Notes: generated from the sequence alone by a model not told the origin. DNA of 64,000 bases from an uncultured Phycisphaerales bacterium (GCA_963755915.1 CAVWLP010000002.1:4128001-4192000); one strand, 5' to 3'; shown: positions 6,757-59,542, counted from the stretch's first letter. Made by a program: numbers and translations.

Positions 6757-8124
6757 ATGACCCGTGAACGCCTGGCGTGGCTCATCAGCATTATCCTCCT
6801 CGCCATCCTCGCGTTTCAGCTCCCCGGAACCCTCGCCGAGCGCGACGACGAATATTCCTGGGTCCGGACCATCGTCGAGATCCATCGCCAGGTCGTCGAA
6901 AACTATGTCGACCCCGTCAACGACAACGACCTCAAAGAAGGCGCCATCAAGGGAATGCTCGACGAACTCGGCGACCCCTACACCATCTACGTCCCGCCCA
7001 CCGAGCAGGAGGAATTCGACAAGGAGCTCGGAGGATCCTTCAGCGGCGTCGGTATCTCCCTCCGCGCCGTAAACGGCAAAATGGTCGTCATCTCCCCCAT
7101 CGAAGGCGGCCCCGCCGACCAGGCCGGCATCGACGGCAACGACATCATCGTAAAAGTCGACGGCAAACCCATCGCCGGAATGGAAATCGACGACGTCGTA
7201 AAACTCGTCTCCGGCCCCCTCGGCTCGCCCGTCACCCTCACCATCGACCGTGAAGGCAAGCTGATGGACTTCGTCCTTCACCGCCAGCAGATCGTCGTCC
7301 CCACCGTCCTCGGATACCAGCGCAATGCCCAGCAGAAGTGGAACTATTTCGTCTCCCAGAGCCCCAAAATCGCTTACATCCGCGTCACCCAGTTCGACGA
7401 CGGCACCTTCGACGAAATGAAAGACATCCTCGTCGGTGCCGATGGCAACGCCGGCCTCCTGTCCCAGGGCATGCAGGGCCTCGTCATGGACCTCCGCTTC
7501 AACCCCGGCGGCCAGCTTCAGCAGGCCATCAAAATAATCAACCTCTTCATCAAGGATGGCGTCATCGTCAGCACCCACGGCCGAAACTCCCCCGAAGAAA
7601 TCGACCGCGCCAGCCCCGATGCCCTCACCCTCCCCTATTTCCCAATGATCGTGCTGGTCAACGATCACTCCGCCAGCGCCTCCGAAATCGTTGCCGGAAG
7701 TCTCAAGGACAACCACCGTGCCCTGGTCGTAGGCCAGCGAACCTTCGGCAAAGGATCCGTCCAGCGGGTGATTCAACTCGGCCAGGACGATGGAACCCTC
7801 AAGATGACCGTCGCCCACTGGTATCTCCCCAGCGGCCGACTGGTGAGCCGCACCAAAGATTCCAAGGACTGGGGCGTCGATCCTCAGATCGTCGTAACAA
7901 CTGATGAAGCCGGCGAAGACGCCATCGAGGACTTGATGGACCGCCAGGAGGCGATCCGTTTCCATCCCCTCTCCACAACCATGCCGTCGAAGGAACCGAC
8001 CACCCAGCCCATCGATCCGCAATTCCAGCAGGCGATGACGACCATGACCGGATTGATCATCCTCGAAACGAACAAGCACGCATCAACAACAATGCCCGCA
8101 CCCAACGCTATCCCGGCGCAATAG
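6757..8124 (+). CDS. S41 family C-terminal processing peptidase
   Basis: Signal peptide, PDZ (FSGVGI), DLRFNPGG, SASASEIVAG, TFGKGSVQ. Confidence 0.95.
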   Translation: MTRERLAWLISIILLAILAFQLPGTLAERDDEYSWVRTIVEIHRQVVENYVDPVNDNDLKEGAIKGMLDELGDPYTIYVPPTEQEEFDKELGGSFSGVGISLRAVNGKMVVISPIEGGPADQAGIDGNDIIVKVDGKPIAGMEIDDVVKLVSGPLGSPVTLTIDREGKLMDFVLHRQQIVVPTVLGYQRNAQQKWNYFVSQSPKIAYIRVTQFDDGTFDEMKDILVGADGNAGLLSQGMQGLVMDLRFNPGGQLQQAIKIINLFIKDGVIVSTHGRNSPEEIDRASPDALTLPYFPMIVLVNDHSASASEIVAGSLKDNHRALVVGQRTFGKGSVQRVIQLGQDDGTLKMTVAHWYLPSGRLVSRTKDSKDWGVDPQIVVTTDEAGEDAIEDLMDRQEAIRFHPLSTTMPSKEPTTQPIDPQFQQAMTTMTGLIILETNKHASTTMPAPNAIPAQ

Positions 8125-52462: not shown

Positions 52463-52850
52463 GCGCATGCGGCGGTGGGGCGGCAATTCACACAGGGCAC
52501 ATCCCCACACGCCTGTACAACCGAATAGCCCCCGAAGGGTTGTTCTCCCGCACTTTAAGAGTGACCGCCGCCGCGCCCCGTTGTCGGAACGTCGCGAAAG
52601 CATGCAGCAGAAGTGCTTCGCCCAACCCGCGTCGCCGCCAATCTGGATGAACCACGAGATCCTTCACAAAAGCATTCGTCCAGCATTGCGCCACACCCAC
52701 CACAGGACCTTCGGCACACCGCGCAACGAAACAGACCGCAGGATCGAATTCCACATCCGACACGAGAGCGTCGCGCCAATGCGAAAAATCACCAACCTCC
52801 CCGCCCCCCTTGGCGTACCCGATGGTTAATAATTCATGGATTTCCGCTAA

Positions 52851-53738
52851 GAGGCTATTTCAAAACCCGTGTTAGTTTATGAATTCGTCGGAAACAAATC
52901 ATGCATGCGGCCAACTCGTTGTAGGCCTGCCAATGGGTCGCGGTCTTTTCGTAGCAGCTTCGCAATCGACGCCAGTTGCCGAACCATGCCATCGTGCGTT
53001 CCACGACGTAACGCACTTTTCCCAAACCGCTGCCATGCTCGCTGCCGCGCGGAGCCAGCAGGCTTTTGATCTTCAAGGCGACGACGGCGGCGATGATCCA
53101 GGGGAAGCCATATCCGCGATCGCCAACCAAAGCATCGGGTTTGCTGCGGGGACGACCTCGTGGCCCTTGAATCGGCGGAAGATTCTGGACCATTTCGAGC
53201 ACCGGCTGCTCATCGCGGATGTTGGCGGGTGTGGTGTGAACCAACAGCGGCAAGCCTTGTGCCTCCGTGATGACGTGACGTTTGCACCCGTTTTTCCTGC
53301 GATCTACGGGACTCGGCCCCGTGTGCGCCCCCAAAAATGGCGCGAACCGATTCGGAATCGACCACGGCTCGCCGCAGGTCGATCTCGCCGAGACGACCGA
53401 GCCCATTGAGCAGCAGCTGGTGCAATCGCAGCCAAACGCCGGCACGAGTCCAATCGCGGAATCGTCGCCAGACGGTCACGCCGCTGACTCCGAAAACCTC
53501 GGCTGGTAACAGGTTGTACGGCATGCCGCTCCAGAGAATGAAGATCAACGCGCGCAGACACAACCGATCGTCGGCCGGCGGACGTCCTCCTTTTTTCGAG
53601 ACGTGGTGCGGCGGCAACAATGGCTGTACTTCGTTCCAAAGTTCGTCGGGAAGCAGTTCCACTGCCATGACATCGCCTCCTTGCGATAGAATGGTCGGAG
53701 TTCATTTTACGGAAAAACACCGGTTTTGAAACAGCTTC
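52851..53738 (-). mobile_element. IS5-family insertion sequence (two-ORF type), 888 bp
   Basis: 23-bp IRs GAGGCTATTTCAAAACCCGTGTT / GAAGCTGTTTCAAAACCGGTGTT; TAA duplication at 52848-52850 and 53739-53741. Confidence 0.93.
52855..53668 (-). CDS. IS5-family transposase, OrfA (53210-53668) + OrfB joined by a frameshift near 53330
   Basis: LPDELWNEVQPLLP..GGRPP.DDR; VVDSESVRA; GDRGY; RYVVERTMAWF; TTTTTGGGGG at the junction. Confidence 0.9.
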
Positions 53739-53867
53739 TAAATCCCCCTCCCTGAAATCCACCAGGCCCACACCAGCCGGCCAAATCGGCGCAGCAACAG
53801 GATCGCGAAGATTGCGTCGCATAAGCAGCACCGTCGGAGGAATGGCATCCATGTAGGAAATCGTCCC

Positions 53868-54012
53868 GCGGCAACTCCTTGTCCCACACCTCAAGGCCGC
53901 ACCGAACGTCACCCGGCCAGCCATGTGCCCTCGCCGCGGAACCGAATCACCTTATACGAGATACCGACTTTTCTCGTCACCAACACCGTAACCGAAAAGA
54001 CTCTTTCCTCTC
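53868..54012. repeat. Dispersed ~140-bp intergenic repeat, copy B
   Basis: Similar to 10307-10450, same orientation. Confidence 0.85.
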
Positions 54013-54062
54013 TTTTCGCTGCTTTTTTGAAATTCAACGCGATTGGAAATCAACCCCCTACT

Positions 54063-54090
54063 ACGTCCTATAATGTATGTTATGTTAAGT
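54063..54090 (+). other. dif: XerCD recombination site (dif-like)
   Basis: ACGTCCTATAA-TGTATG-TTATGTTAAGT: 11-6-11 structure; compare E. coli GGTGCGCATAA-TGTATA-TTATGTTAAAT (XerD arm 10/11). Confidence 0.88.
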
Positions 54091-54105
54091 TTCGTGGCAC
54101 TGGTA

Positions 54106-54930
54106 TCATTTGAGTAATCCAATCAAATCCTCCAGTTCCCACAGCCTATTTATCAATCCCGCTTCCATCGCTGGCGTCTGTTTAATGGTCGAGTGAATCC
54201 GGCACCAGTTGTAATAGGTCCAGAAAATCGCCGTCATCGCAACGTGATTCTCGAATTTCTTGCTGTGGGCGTTCGTCAGCCGCGTGTACCGCCGCACGCT
54301 CATCCGGGCGGTGAGATTCGACCGCTCAACAAAGCTGGTGGAGATATGCTTCGGATCGGGATTGCCGATGCGCGGCGTAACTTTGATGCCGATGCACTCC
54401 GGCGGGGAGTATTTGCCTTCCGCGTCTTTATCCGGGCCGTACAACTTCACCAGTTGGGCGAAATCAACCTCGCAATTGAATTGGTTAATCATCGCGCTCC
54501 AATAGGCGTGGAAGCCGTCTGTGGTGACCTGTACGCGATTCTTTAACCGCCATGCGACATCGGCGGTGATTACGTTCGCTACGCTGCCATCGCGGCCCCC
54601 TACCAGCCAAGCAACCATCAGCTTTGAATCGCTGTCGATGCAGGTCCAGGTCCAAGCATCGCCAATTCCGGCGGTGCCGCGAAGCTCCGGACGCACGTTC
54701 TTTTCTTTGCAATGAACGAAGTCCCAAAGCTCGTCAAACTGGAGACGCTTTGAATTGAGGTTGCAAACCTTGTCGTCATGGAACTGCTGGCAGGCTTCCC
54801 CAAGGTCGCGGATAAGGCGAAGGATGGTCGTTTTGGCGATACCCGTCATTCGGACGGTGCTATTGATGCTGCATCCCTCAACCAAGGCCATAATCACCCG
54901 GGACTGCTCTTGAATGCTTAACTTATTCAT
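54106..54930 (-). CDS. IS1-like DDE transposase, 274 aa, single ORF
   Basis: N-terminal HTH (LVEGCSINSTVRMTGIAKTTILR), QFDELWDFV, VTTDGFHAY, ISTSFVERSNLTAR, RYTRLTNAHSKK; stop codon lies inside the IR. Confidence 0.88.
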   Translation of the reverse strand: MNKLSIQEQSRVIMALVEGCSINSTVRMTGIAKTTILRLIRDLGEACQQFHDDKVCNLNSKRLQFDELWDFVHCKEKNVRPELRGTAGIGDAWTWTCIDSDSKLMVAWLVGGRDGSVANVITADVAWRLKNRVQVTTDGFHAYWSAMINQFNCEVDFAQLVKLYGPDKDAEGKYSPPECIGIKVTPRIGNPDPKHISTSFVERSNLTARMSVRRYTRLTNAHSKKFENHVAMTAIFWTYYNWCRIHSTIKQTPAMEAGLINRLWELEDLIGLLK

Positions 54931-54937
54931 GGAAATC

Positions 54938-55007
54938 GGTGTAGGTACAAATTGTGGGCTTGTCAAGAATAAAACCTCTTGACTTGACCACAATTTGTCC
55001 GTACCAT
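54938..55007. promoter_or_regulatory. Back-to-back sigma70 promoters with palindromic operator
   Basis: + strand TTGACT-N17-TACCAT-N6-ATG; - strand TTGACA-N17-TACACC-N7-ATG; inverted 11-mers ACAAATTGTGG (54947-54957) / CCACAATTTGT (54988-54998), one in each spacer. Confidence 0.75.
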
Positions 55008-55013
55008 GCCGCC

Positions 55014-55241
55014 ATGAAACCGAAAAAGATGGGACGCCCAAGGAAGAAATCGGATGCCGTGAAAAGCTCTTGGTTAGAGGTTCGGTGCGAGGAATCAGAA
55101 CGCGAGGCGTTCCGGGCAGCGGCGGAAGCCCAAGGGCTGGGGATGAGTGCGTGGATTCGCCAATGCCTGCGCCGTGCGGCCCGTAAAGAACTTGAGGATT
55201 TAAATCTGCCGGTTGCATTTTTGGATCGTCTATCGGCTTAA
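55014..55241 (+). CDS. Ribbon-helix-helix (CopG/MobC-like) regulator, 75 aa
   Basis: MGRPRKK...LEVRCEESEREAFRAAAEAQGLGMSAWIR. Confidence 0.75.
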   Translation: MKPKKMGRPRKKSDAVKSSWLEVRCEESEREAFRAAAEAQGLGMSAWIRQCLRRAARKELEDLNLPVAFLDRLSA

Positions 55242-55319
55242 CCGAATGTTCCAAGCCATGAAAAGAATCCCAAGCAAAAATCCAACGACAAAAGCAATCG
55301 CAATTACTCCAGCGATCAA

Positions 55320-56633
55320 TTGAGATTGGGGCCAACCTTGCCTTTTGATATTCATCGCTTTTCCTCAGAAACCCTTTGGGGCGTGATCGTTTTCGGGCTT
55401 ATTCTCCTCTTTGCTGGTCTCGCATTGGTGGGAATGAGGCCGTGGTGGGCTGGCTATATTACTGTGATACTGATCGTAGACCTCGGCATCTTCGTTTTGT
55501 TTGCATATTTGGACCCCAAGGCCCATGCGCCCAGCGTCACGCCTATATCGTTTTCTGCCACGGCCAAATCGGTGACTCTCCCGCCCCCGGAAGCGGGCTG
55601 GAGATTCATTCGGTACTCTTACGTCGATTTGGACTCTGTAGGAGCCAAAAGGCGACACTTTGTCTCCGCTGCACTTTACCTGAATGTTGTGAATATTGGA
55701 ACGTCGCCCCTTACGATCCAAAATTATTGGATTGAACTCCGACCGAAAAATGGTAGTCACCAACTGCTTGATTCCGTTCCGATTGAATCTAAAAATGTTG
55801 ATCTTTATAGAGACGTGACCCCGGAGGAGATTGCGTCGATCAAGGCGAACAATCCGGACTTCGCATACATTCCGAACGCCCAACGTAAGGTGACGTTGAC
55901 CGATAAGCCGTTTAATACCGCGATAAATAATCAACCGATTGGTCCGGGCGATACGGCCAGTGGTTGGGTCTTCCTTGTTCTTAACGGGCCCACACAACCC
56001 CTCTGGGACTTTTGGTTGTGTATCCAGCCGACTGACGGAGAAGAGGTCGATGAACCGATTGCGCTTCCCAATCCACAGGAGAATCGCCCATTGTCTCCGC
56101 AGCTTGAGGTCACCGCGACTTTTCCAATTGAAGACTTGCGACAGATTCCGGTCGTAAACCAACTCGACATTTACGATGTTCCGAGGACGCTCGGAAATCA
56201 TCGCGCCGAACTTATTTCCGCGATAAATTTGCCGGAATTTCGAGGCCAGAAGATCTCGATTGGTTCTGCTCCTAATTCGGAGTGCCAGAATTTTGCATCG
56301 GAGCTTCTCGCTGCACTTAAAGACGGAGGATGGGATGCCACCAATCAGAGCTTTGTGGTGCCACCAGGTCGCGTTGGCGTAAATCTCTGGATTAGCGCTG
56401 CGGTCATCAATATGCCGATAGCTCCAAGCGCCACTGCCTTCCAAACCTTTTTGTACAAATATGGATACACGCAGGATACGACCCAAATTAATGGGTATGC
56501 TGGCATTCCTGCCGCAGAACTCAGGCTTTATGTTTATCCCGTGCTGCCCCAACTTCAACCCGCGCACCCAAACGCCGCCCGTAACAACGCCGTAGTACCG
56601 AGGTCAGTGATTCGTCTTCGTCCCATCGCTTAG
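55320..56633 (+). CDS. Cargo 1: membrane-anchored hypothetical protein
   Basis: 437-aa ORF, two N-terminal TM helices, visibly lower GC; start uncertain. Confidence 0.7.
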   Translation: MRLGPTLPFDIHRFSSETLWGVIVFGLILLFAGLALVGMRPWWAGYITVILIVDLGIFVLFAYLDPKAHAPSVTPISFSATAKSVTLPPPEAGWRFIRYSYVDLDSVGAKRRHFVSAALYLNVVNIGTSPLTIQNYWIELRPKNGSHQLLDSVPIESKNVDLYRDVTPEEIASIKANNPDFAYIPNAQRKVTLTDKPFNTAINNQPIGPGDTASGWVFLVLNGPTQPLWDFWLCIQPTDGEEVDEPIALPNPQENRPLSPQLEVTATFPIEDLRQIPVVNQLDIYDVPRTLGNHRAELISAINLPEFRGQKISIGSAPNSECQNFASELLAALKDGGWDATNQSFVVPPGRVGVNLWISAAVINMPIAPSATAFQTFLYKYGYTQDTTQINGYAGIPAAELRLYVYPVLPQLQPAHPNAARNNAVVPRSVIRLRPIA

Positions 56634-56771
56634 CTTGCCACCGATGATCCTCTCCACCATCGCCAGTGATTGCTGGGCGAAGTCCGGCGTCTCGCGACGG
56701 CGCTTGGGTTTGGGTTTGGGTTTGGACTTCTTCTTTGACTTGGCTTTCGATTTCCGTACTTTCGCTGGCAT
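56604..56771 (-). CDS. Small Lys-rich protein, 55 aa (absent from the ORF track)
   Basis: MPAKVRKSKAKSKKKSKPKPKPKRRRETPDFAQQSLAMVERIIGGKLSDGTKTNH; TTGACA -35 at 56802-56807; C-terminal half conserved at 57947-58030. Confidence 0.7.
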   Translation of the reverse strand: MPAKVRKSKAKSKKKSKPKPKPKRRRETPDFAQQSLAMVERIIGGKLSDGTKTNH

Positions 56772-57216
56772 ACGGAGAATCTTTGCAGGTAATCCCCCTC
56801 ATGTCAATGTCCCTCCAAAATGTGGACACCGCAAACGATACCAGTACCAGTTTCGTGGTACTGGTATCATTTGAGTAAATCGAAATGCGCAAAGAGCTTG
56901 AGGATTTGAATCTGCCGGTGGCGTTTCTGGAAAGGTTATCGGCGTAACCGCGCAAAGCCATTCCAAGGCGAAACTAATGCGGGCAAGCCCGAAATCCCAT
57001 AGGCTCAGAACGAAGGATCGTTCCAGTAACGAAGTAAAACGCATCCTTCGCGATCCTCGCGTGACGCTGGCAGTGGAAGCAGTGCGGGGCCTAAATGTTT
57101 TTCGGTGGCTGGTGGGAATCTGTGAGGCCATCGGCTTAACGCTTCCCCAAATATTTCCCGACCCTAAATGCGAAGATCATCGAAAAGAGCCACGTGTTGA
57201 TAACGACCATTTCGCG

Positions 57217-57972
57217 ATGCCCGATACCTCGGAAGATCGGAAAATCGAGCGTGGAGATAGGCAAATCTACTGGCTCAAGCGAGGCAGCCATGCGACATTC
57301 GCTGTGGCGATAGTGTGCAATATCTATGGTCCGCTTAATCCCGACATAAACACAAGCGCATCGGTCATTGAGGGCATCTTCCTCGGTGTGTGCCTTATCT
57401 TCGAAATACTGGCAGCGTGGCGTGAGAAACAAATTAGTCGGCTTCGCGAACAGCGCCAAAACAAAAAAGATCAAGCACACGCAGCCGAGACGAAGTCGCT
57501 GCGTAGCGAGATCGCCGCAACTTCTAAGACGCTTGAAGAATCGAAGGCCGGACGATACGTGGACCTGGAAATGCGAAAAAAAATCAAAGAAGTGCTTTCT
57601 AAGTACATCGCGCAAAAGCAGGACTATATTGTTCGCGTTTACGTAAAAGACGCGGAGGCTCTGGGTTTTGCCGCCGACATAGATGAGACTCTTAGAGACT
57701 GCGGCTGGGAAGGCGAATCCGATCCGACGTTCAACAATCCGGATTTCGACAGAGGGGTTTCTATGTCCTAACAATTGGCCGACATGATAACTGCCGGGCC
57801 GGGCGGCAGGCCGATATATAGCCCTCCCGGTTACGCTCTGAAAGAGGCATTTGAAAAAGTTGGAATAAAGGTGTCCGCAATGCCAGTCTGGCGCGACGAA
57901 AGCGTCCCCTCGCACCACGTTGCGATCAACGTGGCGCAAAGCCCTACTAACGGCGTCTGGTCCCGTTGCTGA
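57217..57972 (+). pseudogene. Cargo 2: membrane protein split by an in-frame TAA (57769-57771)
   Basis: ORFs 56977-57771 and 57775-57972 are in the same frame; two TM segments, coiled coil, DAEALGFAADIDETLRDCGW domain. Confidence 0.65.
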
Positions 57973-58030
57973 GTTTCCCCCCGATAACCCTCTCCACCAT
58001 CGCCAGCGATTGCTGGGCGAAGTCCGGCGC
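57947..58030 (-). pseudogene. Remnant of the small basic protein gene
   Basis: PDFAQQSLAMVERVIGGKLSNGT; 5' half replaced by a TTCGTCATTCGGGCATTCGG-type repeat. Confidence 0.7.
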
Positions 58031-58459
58031 GGGACACCCTTCGTCATTCGGGCATTCGGATTTGACCTGTCCTCGGCGCTGGGATTCGTCATTAAAGATT
58101 GAAACCACGGCCTCTGGCCGTGGACGCGAATAGGCTCTGCCGTTCCGGCGTGAACAACGTCTGCAAGTGAAAATGGTCCTCCGACCTTGAAGCCGGTTGG
58201 CCTTGGAAGGAGAGCCATATGCACGAATTCGAAGAGGTTTTCGATGCGCACACCCAAGCGGCCGAACACTGACCGTCTCTGGCACGGGAGTCGATGATGC
58301 CGTCGTTTGACCATCATGGCAAGGTGCGCTCAACGCCCCCCTTGGGGGGCATCCTGATACCACCCCCTATGGGGGTGGAGACTCATTCTGGTTTCGGAAT
58401 TCGGGTTTCCAGAGACCCTGGTTTCGGAATTCGGATTCCCCCCTGTTATATTTCCCCCC

Positions 58460-59542
58460 GTGACCATCACCGCCTATATCCCCTGCCACAACAACGAAAA
58501 AACCGTCAACGAAACCGCCGCCGCATTACGCAACCAAACCCGCCCGGCCGATCAATATCTCTTCATCAACGACCGCTGCACCGATCACAGTCCCCAGATC
58601 GCCCAGGAAAACGGATTTCAAGTCCTCGACCTAACCGGCTCGATGGGCCTCGGCGCCGGCCGTAACCTGGCCCTGCGAACCTGCACCAGCGAAATCCTCC
58701 TCGGCCTAGACGCCGACGTTGTCCCCGCCCAGGACTATATCGAAAAAATGCACGATGCCTTCGCCCGCAACCCCGACAAGGCCGCCATTGGCGGCCGCCT
58801 CGACGAAAAATATACCGACTCCCTCCCCGACCTCTGGCGAAGCATCCACATGCCCCAGCATCACGGCGACGCCGAGCAAATCGACCCGCGCCTGCTCTAC
58901 GGCGCCACCATGGCCTGCCGGGTCGATCCCGTCCGCCGCATCGGCGGCTGGGACATACGCTGCATCGCCAGCTTCGACGACCTCAACCTCTGCAACCGCC
59001 TCCGCCAGGCCGGCTTTCATCTCTTGTACACGCCCACCTGCCGCGCCTGGCACATTCGCCGCGACACGCTCGATTCCGTCCTACGCAGTTTCCACAACTG
59101 GCAGAGTTTCGAATACGAGCCCCCACCCCCGGACCTCATCCCTTGGCTGCACGACCGCATTTCGAAAATCTGGCGGGCCTATCGCTTTATGCGCGTCCGC
59201 GAGATCGATCACCCCGCCCTATCGGCAATCACCCTGCTGATGCCCTGGTCCTGCATGATTCGCGACATATTCGCCCTGCGGAAATCGGCACGATTCTTTG
59301 CCGACCCCACACCCCTGATTCACCTGGCCGGCGAAGTTTTCACGCGCTATGGAGCCCCGCAAAAGCTCGTCGCCGCCATTCAGACCTGGTTGTCCAGGCT
59401 TATTGCCACCCTGGAGCAAAACCCCGGCTGGCCGGCCCTGAATTCCGCAATCACCGACATCGCCCGCCATTACGCCTTCGAATCGATCCCCGACGCAGCC
59501 TATTGGCGCAACTGCGAAAGCGGCTCCCACCTGTTTGATTGA
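58460..59542 (+). CDS. Glycosyltransferase family 2
   Basis: YIPCHNNE, INDRCTD.S, GRNLAL, LDAD, IGGWD. Confidence 0.88.
   Translation: MTITAYIPCHNNEKTVNETAAALRNQTRPADQYLFINDRCTDHSPQIAQENGFQVLDLTGSMGLGAGRNLALRTCTSEILLGLDADVVPAQDYIEKMHDAFARNPDKAAIGGRLDEKYTDSLPDLWRSIHMPQHHGDAEQIDPRLLYGATMACRVDPVRRIGGWDIRCIASFDDLNLCNRLRQAGFHLLYTPTCRAWHIRRDTLDSVLRSFHNWQSFEYEPPPPDLIPWLHDRISKIWRAYRFMRVREIDHPALSAITLLMPWSCMIRDIFALRKSARFFADPTPLIHLAGEVFTRYGAPQKLVAAIQTWLSRLIATLEQNPGWPALNSAITDIARHYAFESIPDAAYWRNCESGSHLFD

Follow-up and report, generated by a model that had tools for sequence, protein, structure and literature searches.

The 64,000-nt stretch of DNA analysed here, called the window, comes from an uncultured Phycisphaerales bacterium (GCA_963755915.1 CAVWLP010000002.1:4128001-4192000). 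At 54096-56848 it contains an intact, single-copy passenger-carrying insertion sequence (tIS) of a divergent IS1-family subgroup, and the left end of a decayed relative adjoins it. The backbone of the family to which this element belongs is two co-oriented genes at opposite ends, one encoding a small basic three-helix protein and the other a DDE transposase in a single open reading frame (ORF). Between them is a slot. Comparison of the sequences shows that the content of the slot is freely replaced between close relatives and that the whole unit transposes, with 8-bp target duplications. In the window element the slot holds genes for a ribbon-helix-helix (RHH) protein and for a fast-evolving membrane-protein cargo. 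The best explanation overall, which we consider likely to be right, is an IS1-family tIS with a two-gene backbone, an exchangeable slot and an RHH-cargo module, working by the mechanism that we infer below.

A complete IS1-family element in the window

The ORF listing, a repeat search and direct reading of the sequence all identify 54096-56848 as a complete IS1-family element of 2,753 bp, element 1. In the orientation of the window its order is transposase (-), RHH protein (+), membrane-protein cargo (+) and 55-aa basic protein (-), all between inverted repeats. Its features are as follows.

54088-54095, no strand: left copy of the target-site duplication, AGTTTCGT, read from the sequence and identical to 56849-56856
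54096-54121, no strand: left inverted repeat (IRL), the transposase-side end, beginning GGCACTGGTATC and aligning with the family end consensus GGTAGTGGGTCAGTTTGA
54106-54930, minus strand: IS1-family DDE transposase (P0001), 274 aa, one intact ORF, identified by profile and homologue searches
54941-55004, no strand: predicted mirror-symmetric divergent promoter/operator region of 64 bp, an inverted repeat that is 82% complementary
55014-55241, plus strand: RHH protein (P0003), 75 aa, Pfam NikA-like (E 9.2e-07, 29.4 bits, cut-off 27)
55338-56633, plus strand: cargo 1, membrane protein; the longest ORF starts at TTG 55320, and TTG 55338 fits the N-termini of homologues
56604-56771, minus strand: small basic protein (P0002), 55 aa, a short form with the N-terminal motif only, matching positions 8-33 of the small-protein hidden Markov model (HMM)
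56823-56848, no strand: right inverted repeat (IRR), the small-gene-side end and partner arm of IRL, beginning GGTACTGGTATC when read inward
56849-56856, no strand: right copy of the target-site duplication, AGTTTCGT, read from the sequence

The inverted repeats are imperfect (54095-54121 / 56823-56849, 27 nt, 78% complementary), and the stop codon of the transposase falls inside IRL. The two ends are GGCACTG and GGTACTG, matching a GGnnnTG start, and the terminus of IRR, ...GATACCAGTACC, directly abuts the right copy of the duplication. The repeats carry an indel relative to the family end consensus, owing to which blastn-short missed them; the ends were therefore fixed by hand, from the repeat search and direct reading.

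Element 1 is present once in its own genome. Independent short-read contigs, from four soil DNA runs of one study, bridge both junctions (record 2 of contig set X1 spans 53760-56448 and record 30 of X4 spans 56629-57091), so the arrangement of element 1 and its neighbour is not an assembly artefact. No empty-site or excision joints were seen in the contigs of these four runs.

Transposase and family survey

The transposase matches the NCBIfam IS1 model NF033558 with an E of 1e-14 and 55 bits, the equivalog cut-off being 100, and Pfam DDE_Tnp_IS1 (PF03400) with an E of 0.029, which is under the curated cut-off. PF03400 is precomputed on many of its homologues of 54-70% identity. A word-indexed search scored 7,989 homologues, many of them named 'IS1 family transposase'; the top non-self homologue has 72% identity over 99% coverage, and plasmid homologues of 44-50% identity are given the same name by PGAP. 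By these comparisons the transposase belongs to a divergent IS1 subgroup and is not a close IS1 equivalog.

About seven more paralogues, of 49-54% identity, are present in the same genome. Relatives were sought elsewhere with an alignment of five paralogues (A1), using one genome per species; 578 were confirmed and the best 80 kept, and a metagenome scan contributed another 80 loci. The resulting set of 166 related loci, 160 of them foreign, holds the best-scoring of many thousands and includes near-duplicates from related samples. By their titles, the best 80 genome relatives come from Acidobacteriota, Planctomycetota, Bacteroidota, Ignavibacteriota, Zixibacteria, Binatia, Nitrospirae, Gemmatimonadaceae, Chloroflexota and several proteobacterial classes. 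Transposase identity in the metagenome scan is at most 54%, save for one 1.2-kb contig (L113) at 68%. Within the window's own phylum, 12 of 401 genomes (its own included) matched at E<=1e-60, and the 400 further genomes held no relative above 54% identity.

When the loci were searched for the transposase-side end in inverted copy, 27 of 86 had a significant pair. A consensus-guided pass and the hand-set ends of the window element brought the number of elements delimited at both ends to 29, with lengths of 1,336-4,913 bp. Both flanks are available for 28 of them (L076 is without one), and 26 of these are surrounded by exact 8-bp direct repeats, the exceptions being L047 and L048. Everything between the repeats therefore transposes as one piece, and passenger genes lie inside repeats and duplication in the window element and in 27 foreign elements.

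The target sites themselves show a weak symmetric signal, CAA at -18 to -16 and TTG at +16 to +18 from the ends (0.3-0.4 bit per position, n=26). This signal is absent at the site of the window element.

The slot and its turnover

The 115 loci with both a small gene and a complete transposase yield 107 distinct slots, of 75-3,549 bp. Their non-nested ORFs of at least 50 aa are mostly read against the direction of the transposase, covering 90 kb on that strand and 31 kb on the strand of the transposase. Where the transposase genes of two loci are 80-88% identical, their slots are unaligned or show only short alignments, of 34-57 nt at the transposase side or about 200 nt at the small-gene side. 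L145 and L155, for example, have transposase genes of 88% nucleotide identity and slots of 374 and 585 nt, of which 34 nt align. Slots of L061 and L110 (84%) and of L125 and L135 (83%) share no alignment, and those of L045 and L086 (84%) align over 57 nt.

A Pfam family was assigned to 23 of 103 slot ORFs in the 27 foreign elements with defined ends and to 41 of 144 in 80 further loci. Many cargos are of toxin-antitoxin (TA) or defence type. HTH_3 fused to Peptidase_M78 (XRE-M78) is present in 12 loci, each time with an uncharacterised partner ORF. Other families are PemK/MazF (2 loci), PIN or PIN_3 (3 loci), Gp49 with HTH, HigB with HTH, SocA/Panacea, DUF4258 (2 loci) and Fic (2 loci). Slots also hold AbiEii-like AAA_21 ATPases (2 loci), P63C (5 loci), a ClpP-like SDH protease (6 loci), NYN, several DUFs and an 830-aa N6_Mtase/MmeI-like enzyme, which is intact in L037 and there adjoins a PIN gene.

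The other copies in the genome of the window differ in cargo too. One copy (p3; L207, contig 2, 132001-140000; 1196-5901) has the full four-part order of element 1 with three cargo ORFs, namely an Eco57I/MmeI-like N6 methylase split into ORFs of 392 and 469 aa, and an ORF of 226 aa. Two further four-part copies, p6 and p7, have a 408-aa cargo protein without a family. Of a further element, at 3.854 Mb, only a remnant is left, with the tail of the small gene and a 370-aa protein that has a tRNA_anti-like domain.

The small basic protein, a second backbone gene

An HMM built from 13 seeds finds the small gene in 126 of the 166 loci. In 120 of these it is read in the direction of the transposase and precedes it at gaps of 73-3,550 bp, a position and strand that the small gene of element 1 shares; in 6 it is on the other strand. 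At five loci the distance is 73-109 bp and there is no cargo between the two genes. Among the loci without a match, 32 end within 3 kb upstream of the transposase, and the other 8 extend far enough. Four of these eight are the RHH-lineage copies of the window's own genome, whose small proteins have the N-terminal motif only. The RHH-lineage small proteins align to the same HMM positions, with scores that are reached by 0-2 of 500 shuffles.

The protein has an N-terminal motif, (K/R)n-RDxNQLAxxIVxxATGE, and a C-terminal motif, KNPAAVALGRLGGLKGGKARAxxLSxxxRxxIAxKAAxARW. Ten columns are invariant across 61 sequences of 44-71% identity. Its model has three helices (pLDDT 79, pTM 0.34). It has no Pfam or PADLOC family; in PHROGs one family, its function not known, was matched by the C-terminal motif alone, and the ESM Atlas clusters are named 'hypothetical' or 'histone H1 family'. 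Plasmid p_1 of Mesorhizobium loti 582, with the same architecture, is annotated in order as 'histone H1', hypothetical, HTH protein and IS1 family transposase, and a plasmid of Acidiphilium multivorum JZ-6 also has this architecture.

P63C cargo proteins, among them those of L047:5810-6901:-, L064:5812-6906:- and L076:5890-6921:-, carry GGxARAxxLxxxxRxxIAxKAAxARW at their N-termini. Because this is the motif of the C-terminal half of the small protein, the motif would be a separable module common to backbone and cargo.

Could the small ORF be something other than a functional gene of the element, either an ORF present by chance or as antisense, or the gene of a host nucleoid protein next to which the elements tend to insert? 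The version in the window is just 55 aa long and of low complexity, it overlaps the 3' end of cargo 1 convergently by 30 nt, no Pfam, PDB or PADLOC entry matches it, and one record calls its relative 'histone H1'. All of this would fit such an origin. A chance or host ORF would nevertheless have to occur inside the inverted repeats and target duplications of elements from many phyla, at a fixed end in 126 of the 166 loci, with few exceptions on the strand of the transposase, and to keep ten invariant residues among sequences that diverge so far. We regard this as very improbable, and favour the small gene as part of the backbone.

The RHH protein and the mirror promoter

In addition to its NikA-like match, the RHH protein matches Pfam DUF6290, TacA1 (0.0018) and RHH_1 more weakly, and has weak matches to MobA and the RelB antitoxin (0.0025) in NCBIfam. 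From its stop codon to the cargo start at 55338 there are 96 nt. Upstream, the predicted mirror region has 28-nt arms with back-to-back TTGACA/TTGACT in the centre and an ACAA(A/T)TTGT palindrome in each arm. A promoter-like site, TTGACT-17-TACCAT at 54979-55007, ends 7 nt before the RHH ATG. With this site, and no clear terminator between RHH gene and cargo, expression of the cargo from the regulator promoter is plausible.

In element 1, L113, p3 and p6 the whole space from transposase ATG to RHH ATG is an imperfect palindrome with arms of 28-38 nt and TTGAC boxes back to back in the centre, and the sequence differs from element to element. Equivalent palindromes with other sequences are present in L113, L013, L014 and L198. 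The geometry of these palindromes suggests that the RHH protein would regulate both promoters.

An HMM of the four RHH copies from the window's genome matches element 1, p3, p6 and just one of the 160 foreign loci, L113, which is also the closest transposase relative (68% identity). The RHH protein is thus specific to a lineage and not part of the backbone. At about 160 kb in the same genome (L198, contig 2, 157000-162500; 3011-4728) the same palindrome centre is found with a 61%-identical RHH protein and a 282-aa membrane protein. The divergent partner here is an IS5-like transposase (SWIM and DDE_Tnp_1) that is split in two ORFs, and no terminal repeats enclosing the RHH module and this transposase were found at the locus. 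Because the same centre, RHH gene and C-terminal-domain cargo also occur beside an IS5-like transposase, RHH, mirror promoter and cargo form a portable module that docks at transposase 5' ends.

The earlier note on this DNA, a reading of the sequence alone, had proposed a fixed backbone that includes the regulator, with an exchangeable passenger slot. At family scale the backbone and slot hold, with 107 distinct slots, unrelated contents at 80-88% transposase identity and 8-bp duplications; slot contents vary between relatives rather than being one constant cargo, and many fall in the TA or defence-type families against which the note suggested they be catalogued. When relatives are aligned, the small gene is kept as proposed (126/166); the regulator is not, being absent from 159 of 160 foreign loci. 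The pair of units that the note compared is an intact element and a transposase-less remnant, the cargos of which share a C-terminal domain.

An ORF of 41 hydrophobic aa (55230-55355, -) lies antisense in the gap between RHH gene and cargo and overlaps the cargo start; by eye it has one membrane helix. It is absent from the relative in the sister species G520, where the stretch is deleted, and is probably a chance ORF.

Cargos of the RHH lineage

In its AF2 model, made with an alignment of 13 sequences (pLDDT 67), cargo 1 consists of a transmembrane (TM) hairpin, then a beta-sandwich domain and, at the C-terminus, an alpha/beta domain. When 1.84 billion representative proteins were searched exhaustively with HMMER, only 10 matched, itself included. 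One covers residues 70-419 (34% identity), five only the N-terminal hairpin (residues 7-80) and three only the C-terminal domain (residues 275-420). Among the hairpin-only relatives is P0127, at the syntenic site in G520. The best ESM Atlas score, 0.78, is a lead only.

Cargo 2, that of the remnant, has TM segments, a coiled coil and the C-terminal domain of cargo 1. A direct BLASTP comparison of the two is marginal (E 0.01), and the shared domain is clear by profile only. With cargo 1 left out of the HMM of this domain, the HMM finds cargo 1 at E 5e-27, the read-through of cargo 2 (with X at the stop) at E 3.9e-10 and the 282-aa paralogue of L198 at E 8.9e-08; with cargo 1 added, the match in cargo 2 (residues 185-317) crosses the stop. 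In a six-frame translation of the genome (140,014 segments) these three are the only matches at E<=1e-3, and all three follow an RHH gene. Given the shared domain, the cargos of element 1 and the remnant are not unrelated genes but relatives with shuffled domains. Neither cargo 2 nor the 282-aa paralogue was assigned to a family in Pfam, NCBIfam, PADLOC or PHROGs.

Is the RHH protein a regulator of transposition? Or, are it and the membrane protein an ordinary TA or abortive-infection module, in which RHH is antitoxin and autorepressor only, and which is cargo without any role in transposition? The weak matches of RHH are to families of antitoxin type (TacA1, RelB, DUF6290, FitA-like), the gene order is antitoxin-first, and the slots of relatives are rich in TA pairs. 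Absence of RHH from 159 of 160 foreign loci, and the pairing of RHH with a C-terminal-domain cargo three times in the genome, once beside another transposase family, are as expected of such a module. Against it, the cargo of the presumed module matches no toxin or defence family, and in five loci, the IS5-like one included, the palindrome reaches the transposase start codon, which would place the transposase promoter inside the presumed operator. We give this alternative somewhat less than an even chance, and it overlaps the best explanation, in which the module sits in the slot of an IS1-family tIS, rather than excluding it.

A remnant beside element 1

The second copy spans 56857 to about 58029 and has no transposase (by tblastn there is one transposase copy only in the region). 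Its features are as follows.

56857-56878, no strand: remnant copy of IRL, GGTACTGGTATCATTTGAGTAA, 22 nt with 1 mismatch to 54096-54117
56885-56947, plus strand: remnant RHH tail, 20 codons, 83% identical to 55182-55244 (tblastn 94.7% over RHH residues 57-75)
56977-57972, plus strand: cargo 2, a pseudogene; ORFs 56977-57771 and 57775-57972 are in one frame with an in-frame TAA at 57769-57771 between them
57947-58029, minus strand: remnant small-gene tail, 87% identical to 56620-56689 (tblastn 87.5% over residues 29-52)

The remnant IRL begins at the first base after the right AGTTTCGT and is the only other copy of this element end in the genome. It is followed by 6 unrelated nt (56879-56884) and by the RHH-tail ORF, the first 3 nt of which (ATG) are outside the stretch that resembles element 1. 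Similarity restarts nine bases past the IRL copy, at RHH codon 57; of element 1, neither the transposase nor RHH codons 1-56 are present here. At the other end about 70 nt of the small gene are left, its basic N-terminal half is lost, and no IRR-like sequence was found after the tail.

The earlier note had placed the similarity between the two copies at the end of the regulator and in the tail of the small gene, and this is borne out. The first stretch (55182-55244 vs 56888-56950) is 83% identical over 63 nt and ends 3 nt past the RHH stop; the second (56620-56689 vs 57960-58029) is 87% identical over 70 nt, within the small-gene 3' end. Against the whole 6.6-Mb genome their blastn E values are 3.6e-10 and 1e-16, well beyond chance. 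The convergent overlaps of cargo and small gene that it gave, 56604-56633 and 57947-57972, also exist as ORF coordinates. Its four-part order applies to element 1, where all parts are present, and not to the second copy, without transposase and right repeat.

At the syntenic site in the sister species G520 (L204, 5695-7420) the flank is conserved and is followed by a 16-nt IRL, an RHH gene truncated at both ends, P0127 and a small-gene tail. This unit has no transposase either, and its deletion begins just inside the repeat, as in the window remnant. Compared in this way, the two sites point to loss of the transposase on two independent occasions, with left breakpoints that are alike. In G520 another IRL-like end follows after 1.6 kb, at 7400; because of it and the transposase-less syntenic unit, the tandem may be old.

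The two units might also have arisen by a local tandem duplication followed by divergence and decay, so that their cargo differences would reflect divergence and not exchange. They adjoin in the same orientation, their shared flanks are 83-87% identical, both cargos have the C-terminal domain, and the sister species likewise has two same-oriented IRL-like ends at the syntenic site. The exact 8-bp repeat, however, brackets element 1 alone and the remnant IRL comes right after it, which argues for insertion and not unequal crossing-over. In addition, the two cargos are not related in their N-terminal and middle parts, the hairpin of cargo 1 recurs with other C-termini elsewhere, and exchange is shown independently at the scale of the family. 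We regard tandem duplication as unlikely.

A short dispersed repeat (58037-58093) is present exactly where the remnant similarity stops and matches at least 5 other sites in the genome (83-97% over 29-48 nt). Two tandem-like copies of CTGGTTTCGGAATTCGG(G/A)TT (58383-58440) are found just 5' of a glycosyltransferase-like ORF (58460-59542). Upstream of element 1 there is a further insertion sequence (52850-53739) with 24-nt inverted repeats (52850-52873 / 53716-53739, 88% complementary). It holds two overlapping minus-strand ORFs, 53210-53668 (152 aa) and 52855-53445 (196 aa), which, going by their motifs, may encode a frameshifted IS5-type transposase.

Proposed working of the element

The transposase would cut at the GGnACTG ends and insert the whole 2.75-kb unit. 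RHH dimers would bind both ACAA(A/T)TTGT palindromes, between the -35 and -10 boxes of both promoters, and so may repress the transposase and the RHH-cargo operon together, as autoregulating type II antitoxins do and as has been suggested for the TA pairs of Tn3 modules. The small basic protein may bind DNA at or near the adjacent repeat, as an accessory factor or regulator of transposition and a positional analogue of the InsA protein of IS1. Cargo could be exchanged by recombination in short conserved flanks, one just upstream of the transposase (or at the RHH 3' end) and the other at the small-gene 3' end. Least certain of these steps, the membrane cargo might be an effector of addiction or defence type that is held in check by RHH.

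Several points weigh against this reading, in addition to the sub-cut-off scores of the transposase given above. The small protein of the window is a weak match to its family HMM (7.4 bits, reached by 2 of 500 shuffles) and is without the conserved two C-terminal helices; in PDB no sequence matches the small protein at an E below 0.17, Foldseek gives no match either, and DNA binding by this protein is suggested by charge and position only. The promoter scan gave 2 sites where 3.0 are expected in shuffles, so that the promoter call depends on position. No TA, defence or phage family was found for cargo 1 in Pfam, NCBIfam, PADLOC or PHROGs, and fold searches gave generic helical hairpins and beta-sandwich matches only. 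With the undivided model the best query-normalised TM-scores in Foldseek are about 0.2, to archaellins and Kir channels, and the wide VIA search returned mostly helical hairpins and one beta-sandwich match, YjhA 3cfu_B (Z 6.9, 111 aligned, rmsd 3.1). About three quarters of the slot ORFs have no Pfam family and some may be spurious, and the loci compared are the best-scoring 160 of many thousands, near-duplicates among them. The order of events at the junction is a further point, the tandem being perhaps old rather than a recent insertion, given the G520 site. The roles of RHH, small protein and membrane cargo, and every regulatory step, are what we infer from sequence.

Meaning of the family

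Tentatively, and with rather more doubt than confidence, the family can be described as an unrecognised and widespread IS1-derived cassette carrier, present in at least 10 phyla, with a new small accessory protein and a swappable slot for TA, defence and membrane genes, to which RHH and mirror promoter would be a plug-in suited to IS1- and IS5-like transposases. If this is true, the plug-in would make expression of the transposase depend on the state of the cargo. An IS is usually regarded as transposase-only; here it is a vehicle of 1.3-4.9 kb with a defined cargo bay. The family is present in thousands of copies across soil and sediment bacteria, and such a carrier would be a simple and frequent route for the spread of TA and defence genes. 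Its slots are a rich source of unannotated candidates, with no family for around three quarters of the ORFs, and the conserved small protein may be an accessory factor of transposition of a new kind. For annotation, 'histone H1' or hypothetical genes beside IS1-family transposases are best taken as parts of one mobile unit. Plasmid copies in cultured Mesorhizobium loti and Acidiphilium multivorum make experiments possible.

Comparison with known systems

The likeness to the IS1 family is in a DDE transposase similar to the IS1 model, GGnnnTG ends and 8-bp target duplications. Ends beginning GGnnnTG are those of the IS1 family in ISfinder, for which target-site duplications are of 8-9 bp. Classical IS1 is about 0.77 kb long and has insA and insB' joined by a programmed -1 frameshift. 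The organisation here is different: the transposase is a single ORF, the element is 2.75 kb long (relatives 1.3-4.9 kb), and at the far end the second backbone gene encodes a basic protein that is unrelated and has no cysteines. Among the IS1 subgroups in ISfinder there are also long ones and ones with a single ORF.

InsA binds the inverted repeat and represses. Like InsA, the small protein is small and basic, and its gene stands beside one inverted repeat, ahead of the transposase and in the same orientation. In five loci the small gene and the transposase are 73-109 bp apart, a minimal layout that resembles insA-insB. Unlike InsA, the small protein has no zinc-finger cysteines and is predicted to have three helices, and no sequence similarity between the two was detected.

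In the literature, with ISfinder and TnPedia outside the search, no description was found of this IS1 subgroup, nor of the small basic gene, the slot between backbone genes, or slot turnover with a TA/defence bias in an IS1-like group. Passenger-carrying IS are known; a lineage of IS1-family tIS with a two-gene backbone and an exchangeable slot is apparently new. The tIS are a recognised kind, with passengers between the terminal repeats (PMC7986276). The window element fits that definition, having passengers inside its repeats that move as one unit.

In Tn3-family transposons, TA pairs are embedded in the transposition module and a regulatory role in the course of transposition has been suggested for them (Lima-Mendez et al. 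2020, PMC7157771). The likeness is in TA or regulator genes that lie between the element's own genes at a divergent promoter region instead of in a distal passenger part, and PIN, PIN_3 and Gp49 are shared (PMC7157771). Tn3-family TA transposons are an analogy only. They are replicative and have TnpA, a resolvase and a res site, whereas the carrier here is IS1-like and of 2-4 kb; no resolvase ORF was found in 54096-58029, where the only transposase is IS1-like. A further difference from the Tn3 TA modules is in the slot of the present family, where genes other than TA genes occur as well and which has a conserved small basic gene as its boundary.

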